NCBI GenBank assembly: GCA_049516255.1 | Contig: JBEKTH010000010.1 | Location: 8,865 to 72,864 of the forward strand | Source of the DNA: Verrucomicrobiota bacterium | GTDB taxonomy: Bacteria > Verrucomicrobiota > Verrucomicrobiia > Limisphaerales > UBA11358 | Direction: 5' to 3' | Length of the DNA: 64,000 bases | In this document: positions 10,564 through 25,527 of the stretch, piece after piece | Layout: each line of letters starts with the position of its first letter | How positions within the stretch are numbered: the first letter of the stretch is position 1 | Notes under the pieces: generated by a model | The model's database searches: none | The model's input: only the letters and a program-made list of their open reading frames with translations | Told to the model about the DNA's origin: nothing | Translations under genes and position numbers: made by a program

Positions 10564-11054
10564 AAAATGTTGCGCTTGAACAGCGTTCAAGGCCGGGAAA
10601 GGCGGCAAAGAATTTGGCTGCTGATGGGCATGTAATACAAAATATCACATCCACATCATAAGCGTCAAATTCCAAATGTATCTGCCAGGACTATTCTCGC
10701 AGGGACAGCACCGGATAACGTCCGTAGAAATCTCTGCAAAAATCACCCGCCGGCCTTCGGAGCGCGGAGCAGCGCCCCGGCTCCATGGAAAGTCTCTTGC
10801 TTTGTGCCGGGACGGTGCCCGGCGCCCCAGTTTTGCAGACATTTCTCGTAGCGTTACCGCAAGTGTTCGTTGAACGATGATGTCTCTTGCATTAAGCCAA
10901 TGGCTGACAGTTTGCTGACAACTTTTGGATTGTTCCCAAAATTGTTTCAGTATTCGGGATGATTGTCTCGTTATTAGTTGCACTGCCTGTTGGTATTTGA
11001 AATGCTCGGGACGGGCGGCATCAGGCATCAACAATAAACACGAGCAGGAGGCAT

Positions 11055-12044
11055 TTGAGACCCACCAAAACGTTGCAAATCCTGGCATTGGCCATTGTAG
11101 GGGTGGGAACGGTTTGCGTAAAATCCGCAGTAGTGTCGCTTGGATTTAGTGGATCCAGCCCAACGCTGACAATTCAAGGGGTGACTGGCAACAGTTACAT
11201 TATTCAAAGAACGGCTGATTTAAGCAATTCCAACTCATGGGTGACGATGATGAATTTGACTCTGACCCAACCGGTTCAAAACTGGGTGGATACGAGTGTG
11301 GATGCTTCCTTGCCCTCCAATTCGCAGTATTTTTATCAGATTCTGCCCAGTCAAAATGACGGTGGCAGCAACTTTCCCACGTCCGGACTGGTGTTGTTCA
11401 CGAAATTCAGTGAAGGCTCGGGAAACACGGTCGCGGACAGCTCCGGCAACGGGCACACGGGATACTTGACAAATTCGCCCGCCTGGATTCCTGGAGTGAC
11501 AGACTATGCGCTGAACTTTGTCTCAGCCAGTCAGCAGTCTGCGGGTTTTGGGGATTTGAACCTCGCCGGATCGAACCAATGCACCTTCTCCATCTGGATG
11601 CAGAAGACCAATCCGAATGATATCGGTCTGGCGGCGCTGGGATGTACCTCTGGAACGTACAACGCGATATTCCTCGCCTGGTGGAATGACGGAAATGTGT
11701 ATGGAGGTGTGGGATTCACCAACGCCTACCGTTATTTTTATGCGCCTCACGTCACCAATACCTGGGTTCACTTCGTCATGGTTTACGACGGCACACAGTT
11801 GCAAAACAGCAACCGGATCAACATTTTCATTAATGGCATTCAGGCCATACCAGTTCCGGGTCAAGCTAACGCCAAAACGGCGATCTCGACTAATATTGGT
11901 ACCGTCTCGACCAATTTCAGCCTGGCGTGGGACTCGAACGAGGGCTACGAAAGCGGCAGCTACGACGGGGTTGGCGTGTGGAATCGCGTTCTAAGCACAA
12001 ACGAAATCCAGCAAGTTTACAGTAACGCCGCGGCAGGACCATGA
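11055..12044 (+). CDS. Secreted LamG / concanavalin-A-like lectin domain protein with N-terminal '...FYQIL' domain
   Basis: TTG start preceded by AGGAGG (11045-11050), then a signal peptide. LamG_3-type hallmarks: GNTVADSSGNGHTG, ALNF, WVHFVMVYDG, INIFINGIQ, GVWNRVLSTNEIQQVY. Confidence 0.75.
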   Translation: MRPTKTLQILALAIVGVGTVCVKSAVVSLGFSGSSPTLTIQGVTGNSYIIQRTADLSNSNSWVTMMNLTLTQPVQNWVDTSVDASLPSNSQYFYQILPSQNDGGSNFPTSGLVLFTKFSEGSGNTVADSSGNGHTGYLTNSPAWIPGVTDYALNFVSASQQSAGFGDLNLAGSNQCTFSIWMQKTNPNDIGLAALGCTSGTYNAIFLAWWNDGNVYGGVGFTNAYRYFYAPHVTNTWVHFVMVYDGTQLQNSNRINIFINGIQAIPVPGQANAKTAISTNIGTVSTNFSLAWDSNEGYESGSYDGVGVWNRVLSTNEIQQVYSNAAAGP

Positions 12045-12177: not shown

Positions 12178-14763
12178 TCAGTCGCTTTGGTCAGTCCGGA
12201 TGGAAACGCTGACGGCTTTCAAGCCATCGGACGTGGCTGTGAGTTTAATGTTTCCGGCTTGCCCAGCCTTGGAGCGGATAATGGCCAGGCAAAGACCATT
12301 AAAGGCCTTGCGGTCATCGGATGGAAATGAAGTCAAATCCGTCGGATCGCCATTGTCGGTGGCCACGATTTCGCCCGGCCCGGAAATTTCGAAATGTACC
12401 GCGTTGTCTGCCCGGGGCACCATCAAACCGTGTTTGTCTTCCACCGTTAAGGTGACAAAGGACAAATCTTCACCGTCGGCGTTGATTCGTCTACGATCCG
12501 GTTGCAATGTGAGTTTCGCCGCCGGGCCGGTCGTTTGCACCATGTCCATCGCCCACTTTTTGCCATTCTTGTAAGCGACCACTTTGAGTTTGCCCGGTTC
12601 GTATTTTACCTCGTTCCAACACAGGCGGTATTCGTAAGGTTCTTTTTTTTGCAGCCCGAGCGACTTGCCATTGAGGAACAACTCGGCTTCGTCGCCGGAC
12701 GTATACACAAACACGGGGGTGATCTGGCCGGCACGGTCCGGCAAGTCCCAGCATTGCGGCACGAGGTGGGCCATGGGCACTTCGGGACGCCAGTGCGCCT
12801 GGTACAGATAGAAGCGGTCTTTCTTGAAGCCGGCCAGGTCCACAATCCCGAAGTAGGAACTGCGCGAAGGATCGTTGGACCCATCGTAGGGCGTCGGCTC
12901 GCCGAGGTAATCGAAGCCCGTCCATACGAATTCGCCGGCCACGAACGGATTTTCATCCTGGCCCTTGAATTCGGTGTCCGGGATTGTCGCCCAATACGGC
13001 GCGGAAAGGTCGTAGGAGCTCATTTGGAAATCCGACTTGCCATCATTCTTGTTGGTGTTGACGGGGAAAAAATATTCACCGCGCGAGCTGATGCAGGAGG
13101 CGGTCTCGCTGCCGAAGATGGGCAGACCGGGATTGGCCGCGTGTACCTGTGCGTACTCGAAGGGTTTGTAGTTGTACCCAAAAACATCGAGGTTCGTCTG
13201 AAAGCCGTCAAAGCCGGACGCAATGTGGTCGCACGCGGCGGTGGTCGGGCGCGTCGGGTCTTCCTCGTGCGCGATGCGGGTCAGTTCCGCCGCAATCCGC
13301 AGCCCAGCCGGCGTTCCCTGGTCGGGCACTTCATTGCCGATGCTCCACAGAATGATGCTGGGATGGTTGCGGTCACGCCTCAGTTCCGCGCGCCAATCTT
13401 TCTCGTGCCAGTCGTTGAACAGACGATGGTAATCATTGGGCCGCTTGCCGCGTTCCCAACAATCAAACGATTCATCCATGACCAGCACGCCCAGGCGGTC
13501 GCACATATCGAGCAGCTCCGGTGCGGGCGGATTGTGGCTGGTGCGGATGGCGTTGCAGCCCATCTCCTTCAAAATTTCGATCTGACGCTCCAACGCCCGG
13601 GTATTGATGGCCGTGCCGAGCGCGCCCAGGTCGGCGTGGTCGCAAACGCCATTGAGGCGGACGGGTTCGCCGTTCAGGAAGAAACCCTGGTCGGCGTCGA
13701 ATTTGATGGTACGGATGCCGAACGGGGTCGTGTATTGATCCAGCGGTTTGCCGTCCTGCTCAATCGAGGTCACCACCACATAGCGTTGCGGCTGTTCCAG
13801 GCTCCAGAGTCGCGGGTTCGGGAAAATGATTTGTGCTTCGCTCGATTGATTTTGCCGCGGGGCGACCTGCACGCCGTCGGTGGTGATGGAAGCCAGTGGC
13901 CCGCCTGGAGTGCCGTCCGCCTTGAGTTCGCAAATCTCATTTTTGACGGACACAATGGCGGCGGACTCCGAGTCGTTGTCCACGGTGACCTGGATTTTCA
14001 CGGTGGCGGCGGAAGGGCTGATTTCCGGCGTGGTCACATACGTTCCCCAATGCCCCAAATGTACCGGCCCGGTTTTTACCAGCCAGACATTACGGTAAAT
14101 CCCGCCACCCGGATACCAGCGCGAGGAAGCCGGCGGGTTGTCCAAGCGGATGGCGAGGACATTTTCCGCGCCGGCCTTGATATACGGTGTCAGGTCAAGT
14201 TCCCAGGAAGCATAGCCGTAAGGCCAGCCGCCGACAAATTGGCCGTTGAGCCAGACGCTTGCGTAGGACATGGCGCCATCCACGTCGAGACAAAGGCGGC
14301 GATCCTTGTCGGACGCGGGGATGGTGAAGTGCTTACGATACCAGCCGATGCCTTCCCAGGGCAGTTTGCCGGTGGAGCCGGAAGCTTCCCGTTTGAATGG
14401 GCCTTGAATACCCCAGTCGTGGGGAAGATTCAATTGATGCCAGCCGCTGTCATCATAGTCCGGCCGGGTATAGGCGACATCGCCACCGGGATTGCCCGAC
14501 GGACGCGCGACCGGTTCGCCGGCTTCCACAAACTCGTTGCCCGTGGCGACGATCCAGGATCGGATGTTGGTGTAGCTGAGTTCGTCGCCGGTACCTGCCG
14601 GGTCACCTATGATAAACCGCCAGTCCGAGTCCAATGAAAGGCACTCGCGAGCGGGACCTGCGGCCTGTGCAGTGTTGGTCAACAGGTTTAAAGCGATGAA
14701 AAAAGTGGCGGCCAGGCACCAACCGCTCATTTGAGATAAATTGAGTTGTGTCGTTTGTTTCAT
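12178..14763 (-). CDS. Glycoside hydrolase family 2 (beta-galactosidase-type)
   Basis: ORF 12178..15018 trimmed to ATG 14763, giving the signal peptide MKQTTQLNLSQMSGWCLAATFFIALNLLTNTAQA. N-terminal DWRF...GWHQLNLPHDW motif and acid/base motif NHPSIILWSIGNE. The length and domain order are typical of GH2. Confidence 0.88.
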   Translation of the reverse strand: MKQTTQLNLSQMSGWCLAATFFIALNLLTNTAQAAGPARECLSLDSDWRFIIGDPAGTGDELSYTNIRSWIVATGNEFVEAGEPVARPSGNPGGDVAYTRPDYDDSGWHQLNLPHDWGIQGPFKREASGSTGKLPWEGIGWYRKHFTIPASDKDRRLCLDVDGAMSYASVWLNGQFVGGWPYGYASWELDLTPYIKAGAENVLAIRLDNPPASSRWYPGGGIYRNVWLVKTGPVHLGHWGTYVTTPEISPSAATVKIQVTVDNDSESAAIVSVKNEICELKADGTPGGPLASITTDGVQVAPRQNQSSEAQIIFPNPRLWSLEQPQRYVVVTSIEQDGKPLDQYTTPFGIRTIKFDADQGFFLNGEPVRLNGVCDHADLGALGTAINTRALERQIEILKEMGCNAIRTSHNPPAPELLDMCDRLGVLVMDESFDCWERGKRPNDYHRLFNDWHEKDWRAELRRDRNHPSIILWSIGNEVPDQGTPAGLRIAAELTRIAHEEDPTRPTTAACDHIASGFDGFQTNLDVFGYNYKPFEYAQVHAANPGLPIFGSETASCISSRGEYFFPVNTNKNDGKSDFQMSSYDLSAPYWATIPDTEFKGQDENPFVAGEFVWTGFDYLGEPTPYDGSNDPSRSSYFGIVDLAGFKKDRFYLYQAHWRPEVPMAHLVPQCWDLPDRAGQITPVFVYTSGDEAELFLNGKSLGLQKKEPYEYRLCWNEVKYEPGKLKVVAYKNGKKWAMDMVQTTGPAAKLTLQPDRRRINADGEDLSFVTLTVEDKHGLMVPRADNAVHFEISGPGEIVATDNGDPTDLTSFPSDDRKAFNGLCLAIIRSKAGQAGNIKLTATSDGLKAVSVSIRTDQSD

Positions 14764-14860
14764 AAAAGTCGCAGTTCCGGCCCGTTGACCCAGAACGGGA
14801 GGATTTGGCTGTTTCCCATTTGATGGCTGTTGAACAAATGGCAACCGGTTGCGGGGATTT

Positions 14861-14879
14861 TGGCTAGCCTCACAAATGT
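14861..14879 (-). promoter_or_regulatory. Shared upstream motif, copy A (ACATTTGTGAGGCTAGCCA on minus strand), ~98 nt upstream of the GH2 start
   Basis: Reverse complement of 14861-14879 matches the 23-mer at 19046 and 20149 over ACATTTGTGAGGCTAG.CA. Confidence 0.5.
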
Positions 14880-15138
14880 GTGGTTTTGGTACTTTGTTAA
14901 ATTTCGTGGTGCAACAAAACGATTTGCTGGTGTAGCATCCGGGTATGCGCACAGTTTTTCCGGTTTGGCGATACCGCATGGGCGCCGGTTGCAATTTCGT
15001 ACAACCCTCGGCAGTCATCAGAGCCTGCGGTCAACGGTTTTTATCATCAAGACAAATCAGAGTAATATCCATTGTCCGGCCGTTGAATGGCGCCCGCGCG
15101 AAAACCGATAACCTGCAAAAGCCGGTCCATACATTTCC

Positions 15139-18100
15139 ATGATCAAATCCGTGCGGCCATACCTCGCGCGCAGGTGCGGAATGCCTGCGGCTTGCCGCGA
15201 AGGCTTTTGCTGCTGGATGCTGGTCGCCGCGTTGCTGGTGCCGATTGTGGCCCGACCAGCCGGCGGGGCTCCGGCTGGTTCGCCCCTTCAGTCAGTGACC
15301 AACATTGCCCAACTTTCCCGACTGGGCTCCCAGAATCCGGACGTCGGTTATTTTGTCCATTTGGAAGGAGACATATTGTGGGTGAACCCGGCGCGGGGAC
15401 AACTTGTTTTACAGGACACATCCGGTGCGGAAGAGTTGGAAATGGATTTGCATGGCCAATCCCTGCAACCCGGCCAGCGGGTGCGTTTGGAAGGCGAGGG
15501 GACAATCACCAGCCGTGGCGCGGGATTTCGACTGGGAGTCCAGGGGCCGGTGGTGGATGACAATGGTGTCCATACGATGATTGAAAAATCCGGCGCAATT
15601 TATCTGACGGCGGGACGGCATCCCATCTGCGTTGACTGGTTCAATGGCGTCGAAAAATATGGGTTGCAAGTGGAGTACCAGGGGCCGGATCTGCCCCGTC
15701 AAAGAATCCCCGATTCGGCCCTGTTTCGCGTCCGGCCGGGTATCACCGGGGCGACAAATTTTGCTAGCGGACTGGATTATGCCTGTTACGAAGTTGATGG
15801 AGAGGCTTTGCCGGACTTTGGCCAGTTGACCGCGCTCAAGACCGGAACCGTATCCAATTTTGATCTGGATGTCATGCTGGGTGTCATGAGTCGGAACGAG
15901 CATGTCGGGTTGCAATTTGCGGGCTATCTTCAAATCCCTCGGGACGGTCTTTATACGTTTTACCTCATATCGGATGATGGCAGTCAGTTGTTCGTGGATG
16001 CACAGTCGTTTCGGCTGGCGGTGATGGGGCAACAGCCACTGCCGGAACCGCGCAAGCTGGTCATCGGGGAGACCTTGAGCGAGGATCGGGATTATCAGTG
16101 GGTTGAGGTCGAAGGGAAGGTAACGTTTGTGAGCGAGCACAAGGACGGATGGGATCTGGAATTAACTTCTGAAACCGGCCGTCTGAAGGTGGAGATTGCC
16201 GATGGCACCGGTCTGTCCGCGGCATTCTTGTTGAAAAGCCGGGTTCGAGTCGTTGGGGTTTGTCAGGGCGCTTATGATGCCGATGGGGACAAAATGGGCG
16301 GCACCTTGTTGGTGTCGAACAGGGACGGAATTAAAATCATCCAGGCAAACGATCCGACGATACCAAGCGTTGAGGGCGGGTCGGGAACGCTTCCCGTGTT
16401 GAACACCGCCGGTGAAGTTCATCAATTAAGCCGCGAAGAAGCGCAGCGGGGCTATCCGGTCAAAATCCGGGGCGTGGTTACCTGTGTATTTCCGGAACAT
16501 CAGGCGTTCACCATTCAGGATGCCACGCGCGGATTGTATGTGGTTGATTCCTCCGAGAGCCGTTCGGTGCCGCCACAAATCGGCGAGTACCTGGAGGTCG
16601 AGGGCCGGAGCGATCCCAGCCTGTTCGCTCCCATTGTGGACGCGGACCGGGTGAGTGATCTGGGGGTGGGACGTTTGCCGCAGCCGGTGCATCCGACCTG
16701 GGATCAATTGATGAATGGGAGCCTGGATGGACAATATGTCGAGCTGCAAGGCATCATTACCACGGTCAATTCGAACGGGGTGACGCTGTTTACGGGGGAC
16801 GGTCGAATCACATTGGAGTTGCGGGTGGCGGGAACCAAAACCGAGGCATTGAAATCTTATGAAGACAGCGTTGTACGCGTGCGGGGGTGTTTGTTCGCGT
16901 CATGGGATTATGTGACGCACCAGGTTAAAGTGGGCGAGATCCGGGTCTATGGCGCGGAACTATCCGTGGATCAGCCGGCCCCCGGGGATCTGTTTTCAAT
17001 TCCGCTTAAGACCGTGGCGGAGTTGCTGCAGTTTAATCCGCAAGCGGGCGTGTTCCAGCGCGTGAAAGTGTCCGGGCAGATCATTAGTGCCCAGGCCCCG
17101 CAATATTACATGATGGACGGCTCAAATGGCCTGCAATTCATCTTGAAGAAGCCCGTGCCGGGGCTGGAAGCCGGCGATCAGGTGGAAGTGGTTGGTTTTC
17201 CGGAACTGAGCGGCGCCTCACCCCTCCTGCACGAGGCGGTGGCGCGCAAGACCGGCCATGCGGCCCTGCCGAAACCAAGGCCGTTGCCACCGAATAATCT
17301 CATACAAGGGGAGTGTGACTCGACCTTGATAAAGGTTGACGGATTGCTTGTCAGTGTGAGAGAGACGCCGGTTGGGCAGGCGCTGGAATTGCGGAGTGGA
17401 ATCCGCACCTTTTTGGCCCGACTGAATTCGAAAATTGATTCCGTACGCTCGCTGGCTCCGGGCAGCCGTCTGGAACTGGTTGGGGTGTACATCGGTGATG
17501 GCGGGAACCGGGCCGTGGGGCAGGACATCACTTCGTTTGAACTCCTGCTCAACTCCGCCGCGGACATCAAAGTGCTGGAGCGGCCTCCCTGGTGGACCCT
17601 GGAGCGCCTGTTGTTCATCGTGGGTCTGCTGGTGTGCGTGCTGGCCGCGGCCGCCCTTTGGATTACTCAATTGCACCGGCGGGTTGAACAACGTACGACC
17701 GAACTGGGGGCTCAAATCCGGCAACGTCAAAACGTTGAGCATCAACGAGCCATGGAACAGGAACGCGCCCGGATTGCCCAGGATTTGCATGATGAACTCG
17801 GCTCGGGCATCACCGAAATCGGCATGTTGGCCGCCCGGGCAAAATTTGCGACCGCTCCTGATGAAAAATGGAACCGGCATCTGGAGCAGGTGCGGGAGAA
17901 AGCGCGGGAGATGGTCACCGCCCTGGACGAAATAGTCTGGGCAATGAATCCGAAACATGATTCCCTGGCCTCGCTGGTCAGTTATTTTTGTCTTTATGCG
18001 GAGCGTTTCCTGGGGTTGGCGAACATTGCCTGGAGTCTGGAAGGCACCTCCCGGACGGCCGACCACACGGTGGACTCCCGCCACCGCCACCAGTTGTTTC

Positions 18101-18363
18101 TGGCTTTCAAGGAAGCATTGACCAATGTGGTGCGCCACTCCGGTGCCTCGGAAGTTCGTCTGGGGATCAAAGTCGAGCAGGGACAAGTGTGGCTGAGCAT
18201 CACCGACAATGGCAGCGGGTTCTCCCCGGAAATCCCGACCGAGGAAATGGACGGCGTGGCAAATATGCGGGCGCGCATTGAAAAATTGGGCGGGAGATTT
18301 GAAATAACCAGCCAAGCCGGTCACGGTACGATCGTCCGGTTCAACATGCCTTTAAGTCCATGA
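15139..18363 (+). CDS. Sensor histidine kinase (HisKA_3/NarX-type) with large extracytoplasmic region containing a PA14 domain
   Basis: N-terminal hydrophobic segment. PA14-like segment: GLQFAGYLQIPRDGLYTFYLISDDGSQLFVD. TM helix LLFIVGLLVCVLAAAALWI. HisKA_3 H-box RIAQDLHDELGSGIT. HATPase_c with N and G boxes (LTNVVRHSGA, DNGSGF, GHGTIV). Confidence 0.88.
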   Translation: MIKSVRPYLARRCGMPAACREGFCCWMLVAALLVPIVARPAGGAPAGSPLQSVTNIAQLSRLGSQNPDVGYFVHLEGDILWVNPARGQLVLQDTSGAEELEMDLHGQSLQPGQRVRLEGEGTITSRGAGFRLGVQGPVVDDNGVHTMIEKSGAIYLTAGRHPICVDWFNGVEKYGLQVEYQGPDLPRQRIPDSALFRVRPGITGATNFASGLDYACYEVDGEALPDFGQLTALKTGTVSNFDLDVMLGVMSRNEHVGLQFAGYLQIPRDGLYTFYLISDDGSQLFVDAQSFRLAVMGQQPLPEPRKLVIGETLSEDRDYQWVEVEGKVTFVSEHKDGWDLELTSETGRLKVEIADGTGLSAAFLLKSRVRVVGVCQGAYDADGDKMGGTLLVSNRDGIKIIQANDPTIPSVEGGSGTLPVLNTAGEVHQLSREEAQRGYPVKIRGVVTCVFPEHQAFTIQDATRGLYVVDSSESRSVPPQIGEYLEVEGRSDPSLFAPIVDADRVSDLGVGRLPQPVHPTWDQLMNGSLDGQYVELQGIITTVNSNGVTLFTGDGRITLELRVAGTKTEALKSYEDSVVRVRGCLFASWDYVTHQVKVGEIRVYGAELSVDQPAPGDLFSIPLKTVAELLQFNPQAGVFQRVKVSGQIISAQAPQYYMMDGSNGLQFILKKPVPGLEAGDQVEVVGFPELSGASPLLHEAVARKTGHAALPKPRPLPPNNLIQGECDSTLIKVDGLLVSVRETPVGQALELRSGIRTFLARLNSKIDSVRSLAPGSRLELVGVYIGDGGNRAVGQDITSFELLLNSAADIKVLERPPWWTLERLLFIVGLLVCVLAAAALWITQLHRRVEQRTTELGAQIRQRQNVEHQRAMEQERARIAQDLHDELGSGITEIGMLAARAKFATAPDEKWNRHLEQVREKAREMVTALDEIVWAMNPKHDSLASLVSYFCLYAERFLGLANIAWSLEGTSRTADHTVDSRHRHQLFLAFKEALTNVVRHSGASEVRLGIKVEQGQVWLSITDNGSGFSPEIPTEEMDGVANMRARIEKLGGRFEITSQAGHGTIVRFNMPLSP

Positions 18364-18986
18364 CCAAGATTGCCATTGTTGAAGACAACAAAGTAATTCG
18401 TGAAAGCCTCACGGAATTCGTTCATGCGGATCCGGAATGCCGGTGCGTCTGCGCTTGCGCAACGGCGGAAGAGGCCTTGAAAGTTTTTCCCAAACACGAG
18501 CCGGAGATCGTGCTCATGGATATTCAATTGCCCAACATGTCGGGCATCGATTGTATAGCTCAACTCAAACAGATGTTGCCGTCCGTTCAGATCATCATGG
18601 TCACGGTTTATGAGGATACCGAACGGATATTCAAGGCATTGCGCATGGGTGCCTGTGGTTATTTATTGAAGCGATGTGCGCCCGAAGAACTTATTTCGGC
18701 AATCCGGGAGGTGCGGCAGGGTGGCGCGCCCATGTCGCGGGAAATCGCCCGCAAGGTCATCGCTTCATTTCAGGAACCGGCGACGGCGGCCACGGAAGTG
18801 GAAGATCTCACGGCCCGCGAGCGGGAAATCCTGGAGTTGCTGGCCAGCGGTTTCCCCAACAAGGAAATTGCCGATCGTGTCGGGTTGACCGATGGCACAG
18901 TGCGCTGGCATCTCCGGCATGTTTACAACAAGTTGCACGTCCGATCCCGCACCGAAGCGGCGCTTAAATTTCGTTCGGCGAAGTAG
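18360..18986 (+). CDS. NarL/LuxR-family response regulator (REC + HTH_LuxR)
   Basis: ATGA overlap with the kinase stop. REC domain (IAIVEDN..., VLMDIQLPNMSG). LuxR HTH: LTAREREILELLASGFPNKEIADRVGLTDGTVRWHLRHVYNKL. Confidence 0.92.
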   Translation: MTKIAIVEDNKVIRESLTEFVHADPECRCVCACATAEEALKVFPKHEPEIVLMDIQLPNMSGIDCIAQLKQMLPSVQIIMVTVYEDTERIFKALRMGACGYLLKRCAPEELISAIREVRQGGAPMSREIARKVIASFQEPATAATEVEDLTAREREILELLASGFPNKEIADRVGLTDGTVRWHLRHVYNKLHVRSRTEAALKFRSAK

Positions 18987-19045
18987 AATAGTCATTGATT
19001 TTAAACAGCTTGCGCCGCTTTCCGGATCGAACGGGCGCTGAAGAA

Positions 19046-19068
19046 CTCTACATTTGTGAGGCTAGGCA
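19046..19068 (+). promoter_or_regulatory. Shared upstream motif, copy B (CTCTACATTTGTGAGGCTAGGCA), 56 nt upstream of the PEP-CTERM gene
   Basis: 23/23 identical to copy C at 20149-20171. Confidence 0.55.
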
Positions 19069-19123
19069 AATCCAGGGATTGGGGCATAATTGGGTCAAAG
19101 CAAAACCCGTAATTCAACCTTCT

Positions 19124-19897
19124 ATGAAAACTGTTTCTTACGTAACCTCGGTCATTGCTGCGTTAACGATGGCCATGGTGTCCGCCAAAGCCGCCACTTA
19201 TACAGGCACCGGCAATGCGGACGGCGGCGGCGCGAATGGAGAAGGCATCAGCAGCGTTGTCATCAACAACGATGCGACCGATATCACTTTCACCATCAAC
19301 ACGAGCGCGGCGCAGAGCGCCTACGTTCAGTATTTTGTCCTGATGCAGTATGTTGGGCAGGGCGCCAGTGGAAGCGCGGTGCTCCTTCACTCGGCGGGGG
19401 CGTTGAACGGCTGGGGTCCCAGCCTTGGCATCAGCACCGGCGAAAACGCCTTTGCCGCCACTTATAACACGGGTGCCACTCCGGCGTTCTATAGTGGCGG
19501 CGCCTGGACGCAGGGTGCAGGAGTGAGCTATAGTGCCGGCGGCACGGGCTTTACTTTCAATACCTTTACGTTGTCGTTAAGCAGCCTCGGGTTGAGCGTT
19601 GGCAGCCAGTTTTACTTCGATGTGGTGTCATCGTACCCCAATGGTGTCGGGCAATCCGCATACGGTTCATTGGACAGCATCGGTGGTTATCCGGCGGAGA
19701 CAGATAATAGCTACAAACCTTACCTCGGTTCCAATGCTTATGACGCTGCCACCGACGCCTCCGGTACGACCTTTGGTACGGCTGCGAGCCTGTACACCGT
19801 CTCGTCTGTTCCTGAACCGGCTGTCAGCGCGTTCCTTGGTTTGGGCGTGCTGCTTATGATCATGCGTCGGAGAACACTCTGTACTCGCCAGCTTTGA
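19124..19897 (+). CDS. PEP-CTERM sorting-domain protein (secreted, function unknown)
   Basis: ORF 18995..19897 trimmed to ATG 19124, giving the signal peptide MKTVSYVTSVIAALTMAMVSAKA. C-terminus VPEPAVSAFLGLGVLLMIMRRR shows the PEP motif, a TM helix and an Arg cluster. Confidence 0.8.
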   Translation: MKTVSYVTSVIAALTMAMVSAKAATYTGTGNADGGGANGEGISSVVINNDATDITFTINTSAAQSAYVQYFVLMQYVGQGASGSAVLLHSAGALNGWGPSLGISTGENAFAATYNTGATPAFYSGGAWTQGAGVSYSAGGTGFTFNTFTLSLSSLGLSVGSQFYFDVVSSYPNGVGQSAYGSLDSIGGYPAETDNSYKPYLGSNAYDAATDASGTTFGTAASLYTVSSVPEPAVSAFLGLGVLLMIMRRRTLCTRQL

Positions 19898-19920
19898 TCT
19901 TGCCCGCCGTGACGGAAAAG

Positions 19921-19954
19921 GTGCTGCCTGTGAAAACGGGCGGCACTTTTGCTT
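19921..19954 (+). terminator. Putative rho-independent terminator after the PEP-CTERM gene
   Basis: GTGCTGCC / GGCGGCAC stem (8 bp, one G-U pair), 9-10 nt loop, then TTTTGCTT. Located 24 nt after the stop. Confidence 0.45.
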
Positions 19955-20148
19955 ATGCCGCCAGGGGATGGATTTTCCGCGTTTTCCAAATTCAGTGCAT
20001 TTGTCGGCCCAAGTGGTATATTGGCATGCTCAGCACATTTACAATAGTTGCCGGTCGGCCGTGTCATGAACCGCACCAGGCCAAGCTGGATAGTCGTTGG
20101 CCTAAAATCACTTATGCCATTTGTATGCCAGGCAGAAATCTCGAAATT

Positions 20149-20171
20149 CTCTACATTTGTGAGGCTAGGCA
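20149..20171 (+). promoter_or_regulatory. Shared upstream motif, copy C (CTCTACATTTGTGAGGCTAGGCA), 223 nt upstream of the pseudopilin-like gene
   Basis: Identical 23-mer to copy B. It lies in a 496-nt non-coding gap after the terminator. Confidence 0.55.
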
Positions 20172-20393
20172 GGGCTGCAAAAGCAACTATCATTGCATAA
20201 TCACTTATCAAACTATGAAGCAATGCGCATGTGGTTATGTTGACTTTTGCCTGTCAAGGTTACTCCACGATTCAGCGCCAATCGTGGTTTTCAAGGCACT
20301 GGGGAAGATTTTGGTCCGTTTGGCCGGGGGACAACGGAATCACGCAATCAGCCTTATGGAAAATATTTAACCGGGATAATTCATCCACAAACG

Positions 20394-21272
20394 ATGGCCC
20401 ATTTAAAACCGCTAAAATTAAAGCCGCGATTACGATCGGGATTTACGTTGATTGAATTGCTGGTGGTGATTGCCATCATCGCCATTTTGGCGGCCTTGTT
20501 GCTGCCGGCGCTGGCCAACGCGAAGCTGAAGGCGCAGTCCATTTTAGACACATCGAACCTCCGGCAATGGGGACTGGGCTTTCACATGTACGCCAATGAC
20601 CACAACGACAGCATGCCGCCGGGTTGGTATGATCCGAATGGGATGTGGATGGTGGTTTTGCAACCGTATCTCCCCGGGGTTACCAACGGCTCCGGCATGG
20701 GTGGGAAGATGTGTTTCTGCCCGGCCGCCACCAAAACGCGGGACTCACTTGCGAATTTTTGGGTTACCTCCGGCACCACTGCTCTGGCCTGGGGTATAAT
20801 GGGGACAAATGGTTATCCGGTTGGTTCGTCCTCCACACCCGTTGGCGGGACATCGGTTTGGGGCCGTCCGGGGATGGGCGGCAGTTATGGATTCAACGGC
20901 TGGATGGCCAATCCTCCGGTGGCGGATATGGCGGTTGATCCTGCGGCGACCGGGTATTGGAGGACCTTGACCGCGGCCAGCAGATTCTCAAAGGCTCCAT
21001 TATTTGCCGATTGCGTGTGGCAGGGGGCCAACCCGCTGCCAACCGATCAGCCGCCCAATTTTCCAGGCGACAGTCCTGTGGGCGCGCTCATGGGGGCTTT
21101 TTGCATACCCAGGCATCCCGTTAATGGTCGAAACCCCATCAATATGACATTCATCGATGGTTCGGTCAGGCCTACGGGGTTGAGACAGCTATGGTATCTG
21201 CCTTGGAGCAGGAATTACGACACGTCGATGATACCCCACATCATGCCGTCCTGGGTTAAATCTTACAACTGA
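20394..21272 (+). CDS. Prepilin-type N-terminal cleavage/methylation domain protein (type II secretion pseudopilin-like, PVC-expanded family)
   Basis: ORF 20247 (TTG)..21272 trimmed to ATG 20394. Motif [34 protein letters not shown] is the class III signal peptide. C-terminal ...[21 protein letters not shown] resembles the H-Xn-DG tail of this family. Confidence 0.8.
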
Positions 21273-21356
21273 TCAAAGTGATGACCAGCTGGCTTCCCGG
21301 CGTTGACAATTTTATTTATTTTACAAAGTGGATGAACCAAACAAACCCATAAAACC

Positions 21357-24077
21357 ATGAAAAAAATACTAACCTTGGCGGTTATCGGCGGCGTTCTTTT
21401 GAGCGCGGTACCGTTCGCATCGGCGGTGACAGTTTACACCGAAAATTGGGGCACAGGCAACAGTGGCGTTACGGGGAACGGCAATATCAATACGGTTGGG
21501 TGGACGGCGATTGCCGCATCTCAGAGTGCGGGACCCTATGTCGGCATCTACACGGCCACGGGCGCGAACGACCCCACGCTCGGTCTGGCATTGCCCGCTA
21601 ACACGGTTTATTTCACAGGCTTTCAAAGCACCAACCTGCCCGGCATGTTTTATACCACCGACACGTTAGGCCAGGGAATCGGCGGCAATTCCAGTTTCAG
21701 CGATATCAATCCGACACTTTACACGAATCTGACATTTAACGTCGAAGTCCGCGGCGCGGCAACGGACACCAACTACTTTGCCGTTCAGATAGGAGGACAA
21801 TGGTACGTTGCCACATCTTATCAGTTGCCCGGCTCCAGCGGCGTCGGGTATCCGCAGTTTACCAATGATTTCCTGGTTTATACCAACCCGGCAAATGTCT
21901 GGCAAAGCCTGACCATAAACGGCACCACCAATGTAACGATCGGTTCTGTGGCCTCTCCCAGTTTGACTGCAACCATCACCGGCATTGGCATCGTTGAACT
22001 TCCCACCGGTGGCGGATTCAATTACAACGAGCTCATCATCAATCAAGGACCGGGCGATTTCCCGCAGATCGCGCCGACCAATACCGCGCCGGCAGTATCG
22101 CCGCAGTACGTGTACGTTGGCGGCGGGGCCGCATTTGTATCCACCTTTGCCGGTCCACTGTTGGTCTACCAATGGCAGACCAATGGCGTGAATATAAGCG
22201 GGGGAAGATACCTTGGCACAGCCGGTCCGACGATGACCATCACCAATTGCAACCTCAGCGATGCGGGTTCCTTCTACATGGTGGTCGTCACGAACAAATT
22301 TGGCAGTGCCACAAACAGCGGTCTGCAGTTAATCGTCAGCAATGTGCCGCCAGGTCTTTTGTATGCTGAGAATTTCCCTTATCTTGGACCTAACGGCAAC
22401 TACCCCATCACCGGTGTCGGCTGGGTCGTCGCGGCGCCGGCAAACACAAGTGTGGGGATTTACCAGGTTGGGGGTGGTCTAGGCGACGCCTTTTCATATT
22501 CTCCCACCGCCACCACCAACGCGTATTACACGACGGATACCAATGAGATCGGAATCTCCGGACTGCCGTTTGTGGACATAAACCCCGCCAGTTATCCCTA
22601 TGTAACTTTCCAGGCCGGGTTTGTCCCGGGGAATGCCGCCGGCCAGGTTTCCGGAGCCATTTCTGTCTACTGGGCGGTCGAGATGACCAATGGATGGTAT
22701 TGCTCGGCGCAACCGCAAGCGATAGATCTCTCGGCGTTAAGCCCTTATCAAACCTATCAATATGGATTTAACTCCGCGGCGAGCAACTGGAACAATCTCA
22801 CCATTACCAGCAGCAATGCGGTGATCGGCGCCGTAGCCTCAAGCCCCTTGACAGGAAATATCATTGGTGCCGGCCTGGTGGTTGCTCACAATACCGGGAG
22901 CGGTTCGGACATGAATTTCCAGAATTTCGAAATCATTACCAACCAGGCTGTGGGAACGCTGCCAAATATTGGCGTGACCGGACACCCCCTCGATGTCAGC
23001 GTCGCTTCGGGAGGCGGTGCCAGCTTTGGCGTTTCCGCCACTGGATCAGCCCCCTTCACGTATGGTTGGACGACCAACGGTGTCACCGTTTCCAATGGAG
23101 GCAGGGTTTCGGGTGCGACCACCCCGACATTGACCATAGCAAATCTGAATAACAACGACAACGGCCTGCAGATTATCGCTTATGTCACCAACTCTGCCGG
23201 TGTCGACAACAGCAGCACGGGGAATGGTGTCACTGATCCCGGTTATGGCGCCACCACCTTGACGGTAACCAACCCTCCCGTTGGCTTCGTTTATTCAGAA
23301 GTGTTTCCTTTTGTCGGACCCACGGTGGCCAACTATCCCATCAGCGGTGTCGGATGGGTGGAAGCGGTTCCGAGCACTCCCAATGCCCTCTTCCAGGCGG
23401 CGGCCCAGACCAGTGCAGGAGCGGTTTTTGCCTACCTCGGAAATGCGGGCACGACGGTGTATTACGCGACCACGGCCACCGACACCAACCAGTCGGGATT
23501 GCCGTTTCCGAATGTCGACCTGGCGGCTTATCCGAGCTTGAACTTTTCAGTGGACATCGCGCCAAATTCGGCGACCGCCAGCAACGTCACCGCATATCTT
23601 GCGGTACAACTTAATGGCACCAACTGGTATGTTGCCGCGAACGCCTTGCTGGGGCCAAACGCCGCTTCGAACTCTGTGTACTCCACGTACACATCGCCCT
23701 TTAATCCCGCCGCGGCCAATTGGAAGAACCTGACTGTGACCAGTTCCGGTGGAATTATCGGATCAACGGCAACCAGCAACTTGAGCGGGGTGATGACGGG
23801 AGCGGGTCTGGTATTTGTCACCACTGGGACCGGAGGGACCTTTAATTTCGGCAACTTCGTGATTACGGGAACCGGAGTCGGCGGCATCATCACTGGCCCG
23901 CTTGCGGGTGGAAGCATCAATCTGTCATGGGTGGGGAACCCGGCGGTGAAACTGCAGAGTTCCACCAACCTGGACAGCAGCCTGAATTGGCAGGATGTGC
24001 CCAACACGTATGGGCTCTATTCGCTGCCCGTGTCGGTCACCGGACCCCAGAAGTTTTTCCGGTTGAAGACACCATGA
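21357..24077 (+). CDS. Large secreted surface protein: three repeats of an unassigned ~200-aa module, two Ig-like domains, C-terminal '...FFRL' domain
   Basis: Signal peptide MKKILTLAVIGGVLLSAVPFASA. Modules start near aa 24, 334 and 644 (VYTENWG.., LLYAENFPYLGPNGNYPITGVGW.., FVYSEVFPFVGPTVANYPISGVGW..). Ig/I-set-like segments: YQWQTNGVNISGGRYLG...LSDAGSFYMVVVTNKFGSA and YGWTTNGVTVSNGGRVSGATTPTLTIANL. Confidence 0.7.
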   Translation: MKKILTLAVIGGVLLSAVPFASAVTVYTENWGTGNSGVTGNGNINTVGWTAIAASQSAGPYVGIYTATGANDPTLGLALPANTVYFTGFQSTNLPGMFYTTDTLGQGIGGNSSFSDINPTLYTNLTFNVEVRGAATDTNYFAVQIGGQWYVATSYQLPGSSGVGYPQFTNDFLVYTNPANVWQSLTINGTTNVTIGSVASPSLTATITGIGIVELPTGGGFNYNELIINQGPGDFPQIAPTNTAPAVSPQYVYVGGGAAFVSTFAGPLLVYQWQTNGVNISGGRYLGTAGPTMTITNCNLSDAGSFYMVVVTNKFGSATNSGLQLIVSNVPPGLLYAENFPYLGPNGNYPITGVGWVVAAPANTSVGIYQVGGGLGDAFSYSPTATTNAYYTTDTNEIGISGLPFVDINPASYPYVTFQAGFVPGNAAGQVSGAISVYWAVEMTNGWYCSAQPQAIDLSALSPYQTYQYGFNSAASNWNNLTITSSNAVIGAVASSPLTGNIIGAGLVVAHNTGSGSDMNFQNFEIITNQAVGTLPNIGVTGHPLDVSVASGGGASFGVSATGSAPFTYGWTTNGVTVSNGGRVSGATTPTLTIANLNNNDNGLQIIAYVTNSAGVDNSSTGNGVTDPGYGATTLTVTNPPVGFVYSEVFPFVGPTVANYPISGVGWVEAVPSTPNALFQAAAQTSAGAVFAYLGNAGTTVYYATTATDTNQSGLPFPNVDLAAYPSLNFSVDIAPNSATASNVTAYLAVQLNGTNWYVAANALLGPNAASNSVYSTYTSPFNPAAANWKNLTVTSSGGIIGSTATSNLSGVMTGAGLVFVTTGTGGTFNFGNFVITGTGVGGIITGPLAGGSINLSWVGNPAVKLQSSTNLDSSLNWQDVPNTYGLYSLPVSVTGPQKFFRLKTP

Positions 24078-24127
24078 GTTTAGTCACTGACGTTGTGTCA
24101 ACTTGGGGGATGTAAAGTTGGTGCAAG

Positions 24128-24168
24128 GCTGGAGCTGTTCGCGTTAAAACCGGAATGGCTCCAGCTTT
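24128..24168 (+). terminator. Possible terminator hairpin after the 906-aa gene
   Basis: GCTGGAGC ... GCTCCAGC 8-bp stem followed by TTT, but the loop is 22 nt, so this is weak. Confidence 0.25.
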
Positions 24169-24174
24169 AAGTTA

Positions 24175-25527
24175 ATGTGTTATTGTTTAATCGAAGGCAA
24201 TGTTTTGAGACTGAAATTGACATGTTGGATGTTTATCGTTTCGGTGCTTTTCGTTCCACGGACGCTGCCTGCACAAAATAATTTCATCGCCGGCGCGGAT
24301 CTTTCATTGCTGGCGTATTTTGAAACCAATGGAATCGTCTATAAAAGCAACGGTCTGACCGGGGATGCGATTCAAATCCTGAAAAACCAGGGCATCACCT
24401 GTGTGCGCCTTCGATTATTTACCAGCAGCGCGGCCCAGGCCCAGGCCGATCCCTATGATTACATAAACAATCTCACCTATACTGTTCCACTGGCGGTGCG
24501 GGTCAAAAACGCCGGATTGCAATTCCTGCTCGATTTTCATTACTCGGACACCTGGGCCGACCCGAGCCACCAAGCCACACCTGCCGCGTGGTTGACCAAC
24601 ACCTTCTCCCAGATGGTGCAGCAGATGTACACTTACAACAGTAATGCCGTCGCCACCTTTGCCGCGGCAGGGGCGATGCCGGATTTCGTCCAGATTGGAA
24701 ATGAAATCACGCAAGGCATGTTGTTCACCAACAACGCGGGAGCAACCATCGGACAGGTTTCGGGCAGCTACAACACGTCGTGGTCGCAACTTGGGCAATT
24801 AATGAAAGCAGCGGTTCAGGGCATCCAGGACGCTGCGAATGCTGCCGGCGTGACCATGCCCAAAATTATTGTTCATATCGACCGGGGAGGGGATTGGGCC
24901 ACCACGGAATGGTTCTTTGACAACCTGACCTATCAAGGAGTTCCCTTTGACATCATCGGTGAGAGTTATTATCCGTTCTGGCACGGCCCTTTGAGCAGCC
25001 TGAGCAACTGCCTGACCAATGCCGCACAACGTTATGGCAAGCCGGTGATCGTGGCGGAGACGGACTTCCCCTGGACCTCTTCGACGAACATCTACGGCAT
25101 TCCGGCCACCACCAACGGACAGGTTCAATATGTGGTCGCGCTGGCCCAGGTGGTAAAGAGCGTGCCCAACAACTTGGGAGCCGGAATTTTCTGGTGGGGA
25201 ACGGAATATCAGGTTCCAAATGCAAACGAGGCCGGGTTTGGAACCCGATCGTTCTTCGATGGCAACGGCAACGTGCTGCCGTCGGCGAATGCGTTGGGTC
25301 AAATTGTGGCGCCGACCGATCTCAGCGTCGTCTTGAGTGGTCCGGATTTGATGTTGCAATGGCCATTGAGCGGGGCGGGGATGACCTTGATGACGACCAC
25401 GAATCTGTCGGCGCCAACAGCCTGGTTGTCGGTGACCAATCCCGTTCAAAATACAGGTACGGTGTTTGATGTAACCCTGCCGATGGATTCCACGTTGAGC
25501 CGTTTTTACCGGTTGCAATCGGAATGA
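24175..25527 (+). CDS. Glycoside hydrolase family 53 (arabinogalactan endo-beta-1,4-galactanase) with C-terminal '...FYRL' domain
   Basis: GH53 hallmarks: GADLSLL..., GITCVRLRLF, LLDFHYSDTWADP, acid/base VQIGNEIT, nucleophile region VIVAETDFPW. An alternative TTG start at 24205, preceded by GAAGG, would give a cleaner signal peptide. Confidence 0.85.
   Translation: MCYCLIEGNVLRLKLTCWMFIVSVLFVPRTLPAQNNFIAGADLSLLAYFETNGIVYKSNGLTGDAIQILKNQGITCVRLRLFTSSAAQAQADPYDYINNLTYTVPLAVRVKNAGLQFLLDFHYSDTWADPSHQATPAAWLTNTFSQMVQQMYTYNSNAVATFAAAGAMPDFVQIGNEITQGMLFTNNAGATIGQVSGSYNTSWSQLGQLMKAAVQGIQDAANAAGVTMPKIIVHIDRGGDWATTEWFFDNLTYQGVPFDIIGESYYPFWHGPLSSLSNCLTNAAQRYGKPVIVAETDFPWTSSTNIYGIPATTNGQVQYVVALAQVVKSVPNNLGAGIFWWGTEYQVPNANEAGFGTRSFFDGNGNVLPSANALGQIVAPTDLSVVLSGPDLMLQWPLSGAGMTLMTTTNLSAPTAWLSVTNPVQNTGTVFDVTLPMDSTLSRFYRLQSE

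Follow-up and report, generated by a model that had tools for sequence, protein, structure and literature searches.

Introduction

NarL of Escherichia coli activates the yeaR and ogt promoters from 7-2-7 sites centred at -43.5 and -44.5, respectively, just upstream of the -35 hexamer. Here we describe a short element that occurs in three copies around the genes of a sensor histidine kinase and a NarL/FixJ-family response regulator, in a 64-kb stretch of DNA (the window) from contig JBEKTH010000010.1 of the Verrucomicrobiota assembly GCA_049516255.1 (Limisphaerales). We consider it probable that this element combines the operator of the neighbouring response regulator with a sigma-70-type promoter that depends on an activator and belongs to a galactan regulon. 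As at yeaR and ogt, a NarL/FixJ-family regulator is paired with an inverted repeat centred on 2 bp and located upstream of the -35 hexamer, at approximately -43.5 or -44.5, here as counted from predicted starts. On the other hand, the half-site is AGCCTSACA rather than TACYYMT and spans 9 bp instead of 7 bp, and the element is thus not a NarL site proper, but of the same architectural class and served by a different family member. The signal is also probably a glycan product, compared to nitrate for NarL, and the regulon is a small local catabolic locus, compared to about 100 genes.

The DosR/DevR box, the lux box and the tra box are palindromes of approximately 18-20 bp, recognized by dimeric proteins with a GerE-type helix-turn-helix (HTH) and overlapping or abutting the -35 hexamer. 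Among the solved homologues of the window regulator DevR ranks second; however, the box sequences differ from the operator described here, and LuxR and TraR are ligand-binding regulators that are not controlled by phosphorylation. In UhpB/UhpA of E. coli, as in the present system, a HisKA_3 kinase works with a NarL-family regulator; the promoter activated there serves carbohydrate uptake. UhpB is the best NCBIfam match of the window kinase, and UhpA is among the top matches of the regulator, for which NarL ranks first, all being below cutoff. As none of the scores comes near the equivalog cutoffs of NarL, UhpA and UhpB, the window proteins are not orthologues of UhpA/UhpB; moreover, the sensor domains are unrelated, UhpB acts through the membrane protein UhpC, and operator and targets differ.

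With respect to gene content, the galactan locus of Bacteroides thetaiotaomicron (compare PMC5238430) places GH53 and GH2 enzymes under a hybrid two-component sensor. Both loci combine a GH53 endo-galactanase, a GH2 beta-galactosidase and a dedicated, locus-encoded periplasmic glycan sensor. The system described here is however a split classical one, with a PA14/HisKA_3 kinase and a NarL-type regulator in place of a hybrid protein with AraC output, and it comes with pseudopilin, 906-aa Ig-like, PEP-CTERM and, in relatives, CBM20-repeat proteins, while no SusC/SusD pair was detected among the locus genes scanned.

Gene regulation in Verrucomicrobia, especially in uncultured Limisphaerales of soil and peat, is almost unstudied. 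No description of the motif or of the PA14 kinase family was found in the literature searched: the motif string retrieved unrelated primer sequences only, searches for Verrucomicrobia PA14 kinases or galactan two-component systems gave nothing relevant, and searches for Verrucomicrobial start-site or promoter studies gave none. The regulatory principle is ordinary; the element shows good conservation and, for this Verrucomicrobial group, has apparently not been described before. It defines a testable regulon for a widespread galactan (pectin side-chain) locus, with an operator sequence, predicted starts and a predicted specificity residue, and links a specific polysaccharide to proteins of the pseudopilin, PEP-CTERM and Ig-like types. 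The operator may further serve as a search key for regulon members in metagenomes and, together with the two-component system, possibly as a glycan-inducible expression switch.

Results and discussion

Three copies of the element flank a two-component system

The window was searched over its entire 64 kb, with shuffled sequence providing the expectation. The 23-mer CTCTACATTTGTGAGGCTAGGCA is present in exact form at 19046-19068 and 20149-20171, both on the plus strand, as opposed to an expected 0 in 100 shuffles. Its 16-mer core, ACATTTGTGAGGCTAG, has a further exact copy on the minus strand, at 14864-14879 (3 matches in total with 0.19 expected), as part of the 19-mer variant ACATTTGTGAGGCTAGCCA at 14861-14879. 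No fourth copy was detected in the window when the core was scanned at up to 5 mismatches, a search for weaker copies (up to 5-8 mismatches) across the window recovered nothing beyond the three known or above chance, and the half-site TGTGAGGCT is not enriched elsewhere in the window.

The genes of the locus are as follows.

12178-14763, minus strand: GH2 beta-galactosidase-like gene, 861 aa, transcription unit 3 (Pfam).
15139-18363, plus strand: sensor histidine kinase, 1074 aa, with PA14, HisKA_3 and HATPase domains (Pfam).
18360-18986, plus strand: NarL/FixJ-family response regulator, 208 aa, with REC and GerE HTH domains and helix TVRWHLRHVYNKLHVRSR (Pfam).
19124-19897, plus strand: 257-aa secreted protein with a PEP-CTERM-like C-terminus (VPEP...RRR), transcription unit 1.
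20394-25527, plus strand: transcription unit 2, comprising the following three genes.
20394-21272, plus strand: pseudopilin with an N_methyl domain (prepilin N-methylation signal).
21357-24077, plus strand: 906-aa Ig-like protein.
24175-25527, plus strand: GH53 endo-beta-1,4-galactanase.

The regulator gene overlaps the stop codon of the kinase gene, and the gaps within unit 2, of 84 and 97 nt, are both devoid of operators. Copy 1 is separated by 55-56 nt from the ATG at 19124 (PEP-CTERM gene), copy 2 by 222-223 nt from that at 20394 (pseudopilin gene) and copy 3 by 97-98 nt from that at 14763 (GH2, minus strand). The initial annotation, which was made from the sequence alone, had placed the motif at the same coordinates in all three cases, and its distances of 56, 223 and 98 nt agree with ours. 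Its assignments of the GH2, PA14 kinase, NarL-type regulator, pseudopilin, 906-aa and GH53 genes also stand; for the 257-aa protein the PEP-CTERM C-terminus is visible, however all PEP-CTERM profile matches are sub-threshold.

The element recurs at galactan loci of related genomes

An exact scan with the 16-mer of 185,579 species genomes, one per bacterial or archaeal species and with matches returned in eight-kb blocks, yielded 71 matches in 64 blocks. Homologues of the window locus proteins are present in 37 of these blocks, which account for 44 matches and approximately 34 metagenome-assembled genomes (MAGs), labelled nearly all as Verrucomicrobiia or Limisphaerales. The remaining 27 matches belong to unrelated taxa and are without locus gene context. 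Beyond the searched string, 43 of the 44 locus matches extend into [GC]C[AGC], versus none of the 27 unrelated ones. An orthologous kinase or regulator is encoded in 29 of the 37 blocks, with a regulator identity of 76-98%, and no regulator other than the NarL-type protein accompanies the element. The identical locus was also recovered from peat and soil metagenomes and from the MAG GCA_964451395.1.

From the motif-bearing locus blocks and the window we then compiled 66 non-redundant sites, allowing up to 4 mismatches. At 65 of these an open reading frame (ORF) begins 29-222 nt downstream on the motif strand, congruent with the proposal that the copies point toward their genes, and the last site is cut by the block end. 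Most of the ORFs encode homologues of the PEP-CTERM, pseudopilin, GH53, GH2 or 906-aa proteins, or proteins of approximately 440 aa with CBM20-like repeats. Gene order is shuffled among species, with each unit retaining its own motif copy: L015 reads operator, GH53, kinase, regulator, operator, PEP-CTERM gene, GH53, and L011 reads kinase, regulator, operator, GH53, operator, pseudopilin. The kinase/regulator operon usually lacks an operator of its own; it either diverges from a gene that carries one, as in the window, or is located 3' of an operator-driven GH53 gene (L015, L030 and L053).

Three identical or near-identical copies within 5.3 kb are also what a dispersed repeat of the REP/MITE type would leave, or a transcribed RNA element such as a leader or small RNA. 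Related MAGs however hold one to three exact copies, all at the galactan locus, and a 4.6-Mb contig (L053) and a 2.3-Mb contig (L062) each carry the exact 16-mer a single time, again at this locus. With such a low copy number, restricted to the locus and placed ahead of ORFs, the element is not the high-copy repeat unrelated to gene starts that had initially been named as the finding to refute a regulatory role. Furthermore, the whole-window Rfam scan gave no family at the gathering threshold, conserved complementary partner columns are lacking outside of the dyad described below, and start codons are as near as 29 nt, at the predicted +1, thus placing the motif upstream of the transcript. A repeat or RNA element is in our view barely credible.

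The same locus was also encountered on six contigs (L017, L019, L025, L052, L061 and L072) from MAGs labelled Acidoferrum, Limnocylindrales, Limnocylindria, Hyphomicrobiales, Sulfopaludibacter and Bifidobacterium. Their kinase and regulator are 54-93% identical to the Verrucomicrobial proteins (regulator 82-93%), and the contigs are probably mis-binned Verrucomicrobial ones.

The upstream part of the element is an inverted repeat

A second sample was selected solely by homology to the sensor domain of the kinase, for which 565 homologues were found, none of them named. Nine of these loci were looked up, DNA being retrieved for seven, while P0058 and P0118 are gene tables that inform on gene association only. 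The regulator is located beside GH53 and/or GH2 in all nine, and pseudopilin genes are present in most. Sites upstream of the same gene classes were recovered in each of the seven loci with DNA (kinase identity 60-63%), with 18 hits at up to 2 mismatches versus 1.6 in shuffles. In the sister-clade loci L076-L079 the site is a perfect or near-perfect 20-bp palindrome, AGCCTGACA-TT-TGTCAGGCT; AGGCAAA comes next, and a -10 hexamer after a spacer of 16 nt. Thus, the upstream two-thirds of the motif represent a 9-2-9 inverted repeat, with its centre between T4 and T5 (numbering the A of ACATTTG as motif position +1, which is distinct from the transcription start).

The putative operator hence covers motif positions -5 to +14, with AGCCTSACA-TT-TGTSAGGCT as the ideal sequence, a 20-bp palindrome of the form that would be expected for a dimeric HTH protein of the LuxR/GerE type. 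In the 66-site profile information content is high across -7 to +21. This range includes position -3, where C is invariant, and position 0, a Y, neither of which belongs to the searched pattern, so that they are unbiased. Tandem AGGCT/AGGCA pentamers and other direct-repeat readings are not supported by this profile. In the clade of the window the proximal half-site (TGTGAGGCT) is invariant, and the distal half has drifted to the consensus AACCAYACA. With the dyad assigned from the sister-clade palindrome, the window copies are the following 9-2-9 inverted repeats.

14866-14885, minus strand: operator copy 3, GH2 promoter, AACCACACA-TT-TGTGAGGCT, distal half matching the ideal at 7/9, predicted centre approximately -44.5.
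19044-19063, plus strand: operator copy 1, PEP-CTERM gene promoter, AACTCTACA-TT-TGTGAGGCT, distal half 5/9, predicted centre approximately -43.5.
20147-20166, plus strand: operator copy 2, pseudopilin operon promoter, TTCTCTACA-TT-TGTGAGGCT, distal half 4/9, predicted centre approximately -43.5.

A degenerate partial motif, CCATTTGTATGCCAGGCA, is located at 20117-20133 of the window, 36-37 bp upstream of the operator, and comparable partial copies are present in the upstream regions of L037, L048, L019 and L023. TTTG occurs at this offset in 7 of the 66 sites, versus approximately 0.4 per offset in the background. By analogy to the -77.5 site of E. coli ogt, the degenerate copy may represent a secondary, distal site for the regulator.

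The downstream part of the element resembles a sigma-70 promoter

Two isolated conserved columns are found further downstream in the 66-site profile, T at +42 (52/66) and A at +49 (46/66). In this arrangement TAGGCA at +14 to +19 reads as a -35 hexamer, separated by 17 nt from a -10 hexamer at +37 to +42, and transcription would start at the purine at +49. The -35 hexamer (TAGGCA or TAGCCA) shares its first base with the last base of the operator. A hexamer of the form nAnnnT is present at a spacing of 16-18 nt in 60 of the sites, and the best -10 match averages 3.68 of 6 in place, versus 2.43 (maximum 2.83) in displaced windows. In the window, the following elements were assigned.

14838-14843, minus strand: weak -10 hexamer TGCCAT of the GH2 promoter, 17-nt spacer, predicted start A 14831, kept in the orthologues L065 and L045.
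14861-14866, minus strand: -35 hexamer TAGCCA of the GH2 promoter, overlapping the last operator base.
19063-19090, plus strand: predicted core promoter TAGGCA-16 nt-CATAAT, predicted start A 19097 (sigma-70 scan).
20166-20193, plus strand: predicted core promoter TAGGCA-16 nt-TATCAT, predicted start A 20200 (sigma-70 scan).

With starts predicted approximately 7 nt past the -10 hexamer, the operators would be centred at -43.5 (start 19097), -43.5 (20200) and -44.5 (14831). In four loci the ATG of a GH53 gene is positioned exactly at +49, 29 nt after the motif (L015 273-323, L030 5763-5713 on the minus strand, L053 3170-3220 and L060 7035-7085), and several pseudopilin genes begin 4-6 nt past the predicted transcription start, which fits leaderless or near-leaderless mRNAs from the predicted start.

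Most likely, as judged from its layout, the element is thus a composite of the regulator operator and the -35 of a sigma-70-type promoter. The initial annotation had offered operator or promoter as alternatives, and both roles are supported, not one alone. Its failure to find a convincing fit to sigma-70 spacing is superseded, as the 3' end, TAGGCA, serves as the predicted -35 and a generic sigma-70 scan calls TAGGCA-16-CATAAT and TAGGCA-16-TATCAT. For sigma-54 and extracytoplasmic function (ECF) promoters, to which it likewise could not fit the motif convincingly, GG-N10-GC is unconserved and the -10 hexamers are variable and TATAAT-like.

The motif is nevertheless long, nearly invariant and directional, and some copies are preceded by GAACC, resembling an ECF -35, properties that would suit the -35 region for an alternative sigma factor, ECF-type or other, dedicated to the locus. 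Such a factor would be at odds with the variable, TATAAT-like -10 hexamers, without a conserved element of the CGT type, with the absence of GAACC from the window copies and many others, and with the lack of sigma or anti-sigma genes in ten Pfam-annotated loci. In addition, the perfect palindrome of the sister clade has no reason in a sigma -35. We therefore hold a dedicated sigma factor to be very improbable.

Two further promoter classes were tried and rejected. For sigma-54, GG-N10-GC is not conserved (positions 23-24 are not GC) and the regulator is without an AAA+ domain. TACATTTG matches TAnnTTTG, the -7 element of Bacteroidetes-type promoters, but the start A and the conserved T that resembles a -10 are located approximately 40 nt further downstream, and a -33 TTTG is missing at the right distance.

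The same cis-element could also work with the opposite sign, with the regulator or another protein repressing the three units and release equalling induction. NarL-family regulators can repress as well as activate, and the operator touches the -35 hexamer, where an abutting site could serve repression. However, operator, -35 and -10 keep a fixed register in 60 of the 66 sites, as needed by activators and not by repressors, and the -35 hexamers (TAGGCA, TGGATA and TAGCCA) deviate from TTGACA, typical of activator-dependent promoters. Thus, activation is favoured over repression. The geometry also equals that of the activating NarL sites at yeaR and ogt, and substrate-sensing two-component systems of catabolic loci normally activate. 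We regard repression as unlikely.

The adjacent regulator is the candidate binder

The regulator aligns end to end with E. coli NarL (structure 1a04, E = 1e-35), with DevR and VraR as next best. Its recognition helix TVRWHLRHVYNKLHVRSR is near-invariant, with one N-to-H change, in 21 orthologues with an overall identity down to 76%. Loci with TGTGAGG half-sites encode the helix TVRWHLRHVY..HVRSR, and RHVY is retained in the kinase-selected TGTGAGG loci L075, L080 and L081. In the four loci with TGTCAGG half-sites the helix instead reads TVRWHLENIY..HVHSR. The R-to-E change aligns with Lys192 of NarL, which together with Lys188 and Val189 contacts bases (PMC10853779). This co-variation of helix and half-site is supportive, and provides the best argument for the adjacent regulator as the binder.

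A different protein could in principle occupy the palindrome, CRP/FNR-like or another HTH dimer encoded elsewhere, the two-component system then being a mere fellow member or neighbour: the motif contains TGTGA, the core of the CRP half-site, and some sites are in blocks without the two-component system (L041, L012, L022, L046 and L047). The half-sites are however separated by 2 bp (9-2-9), compared to 6 bp in CRP/FNR sites, no regulator apart from the kinase/regulator pair is consistently co-located (29/37 blocks and 7/7 kinase-selected loci), and the recognition helix changes along with the half-site. Moreover, the MAG of L041 holds the two-component system on another contig (L018). An unlinked factor is, all in all, quite unlikely. 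A CRP-like reading in the strict sense, TGTGA-N6-TCACA, was rejected, the half-site gap being 2 bp and the right-hand TCACA bases unconserved.

The kinase has two transmembrane segments, at approximately aa 22-42 and 822-842, that flank a periplasmic part of about 780 aa, with the HisKA_3 and HATPase domains on the cytoplasmic side. This sensor (aa 43-820, window 15265-17600) is all-beta in the AlphaFold model (mean pLDDT 80), with a PA14 region and a chain of OB-fold-like barrels. A fold search with the model returned tandem OB-fold proteins as best matches (HIN-200, CST and RPA-like), at low TM-score, informative on the architecture and not on the ligand, and a sequence search of the sensor domain against solved structures gave PA14-level matches only. 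As modelled, the sensor architecture appears unusual.

Proposed mechanism

We propose that the kinase (15139-18363) would sense a breakdown product of beta-1,4-galactan via its periplasmic PA14/all-beta domain and phosphorylate the regulator (18360-18986). A regulator dimer would then bind at approximately -44, just upstream of the weak -35 hexamer, and recruit or stabilise RNA polymerase. Three units would be switched on: GH2, the PEP-CTERM protein, and the pseudopilin with the 906-aa Ig-like protein and GH53. The idea of an operator or promoter of a regulon tied to the adjacent two-component system, as put forward in the initial annotation, is supported by the co-occurrence in approximately 34 MAGs, the sites in all seven kinase-selected loci, the palindrome and the co-variation with the helix; that this regulon responds to glycans appears plausible from its gene content.

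Several observations weigh against the proposed operator and promoter, in addition to the contact between operator and -35 hexamer. The 16-mer scan picks by identity, which inflates the apparent invariance within positions 1-16; for this reason the loci chosen by kinase homology were fetched, representing a partial correction. With the distal half matching the ideal at just 5/9 and 4/9 in copies 1 and 2, dimer binding is not guaranteed there. The GH2 copy is the weakest of the three promoters (TAGCCA-17-TGCCAT), with a poor -10. The -35 and the following AA are conserved beyond what is usual for a plain -35, and the protein footprint may therefore extend there, or another constraint acts. The co-variation of helix and half-site reflects one phylogenetic split (4 loci versus approximately 24) and not several independent events, and is thus supportive rather than conclusive. 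Finally, a galactan-derived oligosaccharide as ligand of the kinase is a guess from the PA14 domain and the gene context.

The three motif-bearing units would define a galactan regulon that is kept across many uncultured Limisphaerales. Of greater novelty is the proposal that glycoside hydrolases are regulated together with pseudopilin, PEP-CTERM, Ig-like and CBM20-repeat proteins. It is conceivable, if rather doubtful, that the operator-defined regulon co-induces substrate-specific pseudopilins, large Ig-like, PEP-CTERM surface and CBM20-repeat proteins with GH53 and GH2 as a Sus-independent, pilus- or type-II-secretion-like apparatus for glycan capture or uptake in soil Verrucomicrobia, controlled by a new class of periplasmic sensor (PA14 and a string of OB-fold-like barrels). 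If true, this would offer a first functional handle on the dozens of pulG-like pseudopilin paralogues beside CAZyme genes in PVC bacteria. In another Verrucomicrobium, with 67 pulG-like paralogues, a pseudopilin is reported among the alginate-induced genes (PMC13274419), hinting that the link between pseudopilins and polysaccharides may be general.

Further features of the locus

The PEP-CTERM gene is directly followed by a hairpin.

19917-19953, plus strand: strong GC-rich hairpin with U-tract (UUUUGCUU; fold z = -3.0).

This hairpin is likely an intrinsic terminator that would render unit 1 monocistronic, and its presence after the 257-aa gene thus suggests that units 1 and 2 are separate transcripts. 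Between terminator and operator 2, approximately 120 nt upstream of the latter, a sigma-70-like match, TTGGCA-16-AATAGT, is located at 20021-20048. Elsewhere in the window no paralogous two-component systems, pseudopilins or PEP-CTERM genes were found. A LAM55 pectate-lyase-like gene (minus strand) and a LamG-domain gene (plus strand), at 8575-12044 of the window, are syntenic in all strain variants; as neither has an operator copy, there is no sign of regulon membership.

The leader of the pseudopilin unit measures approximately 194 nt (20200-20393), with conserved blocks just past the -10 hexamer and just before the pilin start. It contains a candidate 51-aa upstream ORF (20215-20370), the N-terminus of which, MKQCA(C/R)C, is kept in L049, L014 and L063. 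The length of this ORF is 24-51 aa among relatives, and L045 and L056 lack it. A leader peptide and an RNA element are both conceivable, as is the absence of any function.

The C-terminus of the 906-aa protein (window 23900-24077) shares a domain of approximately 55 aa with CBM20-repeat proteins of L021, L034, L047 and L061. This domain, at 37-51% identity, ends with FFRLxGP and may represent a common sorting or anchoring module.

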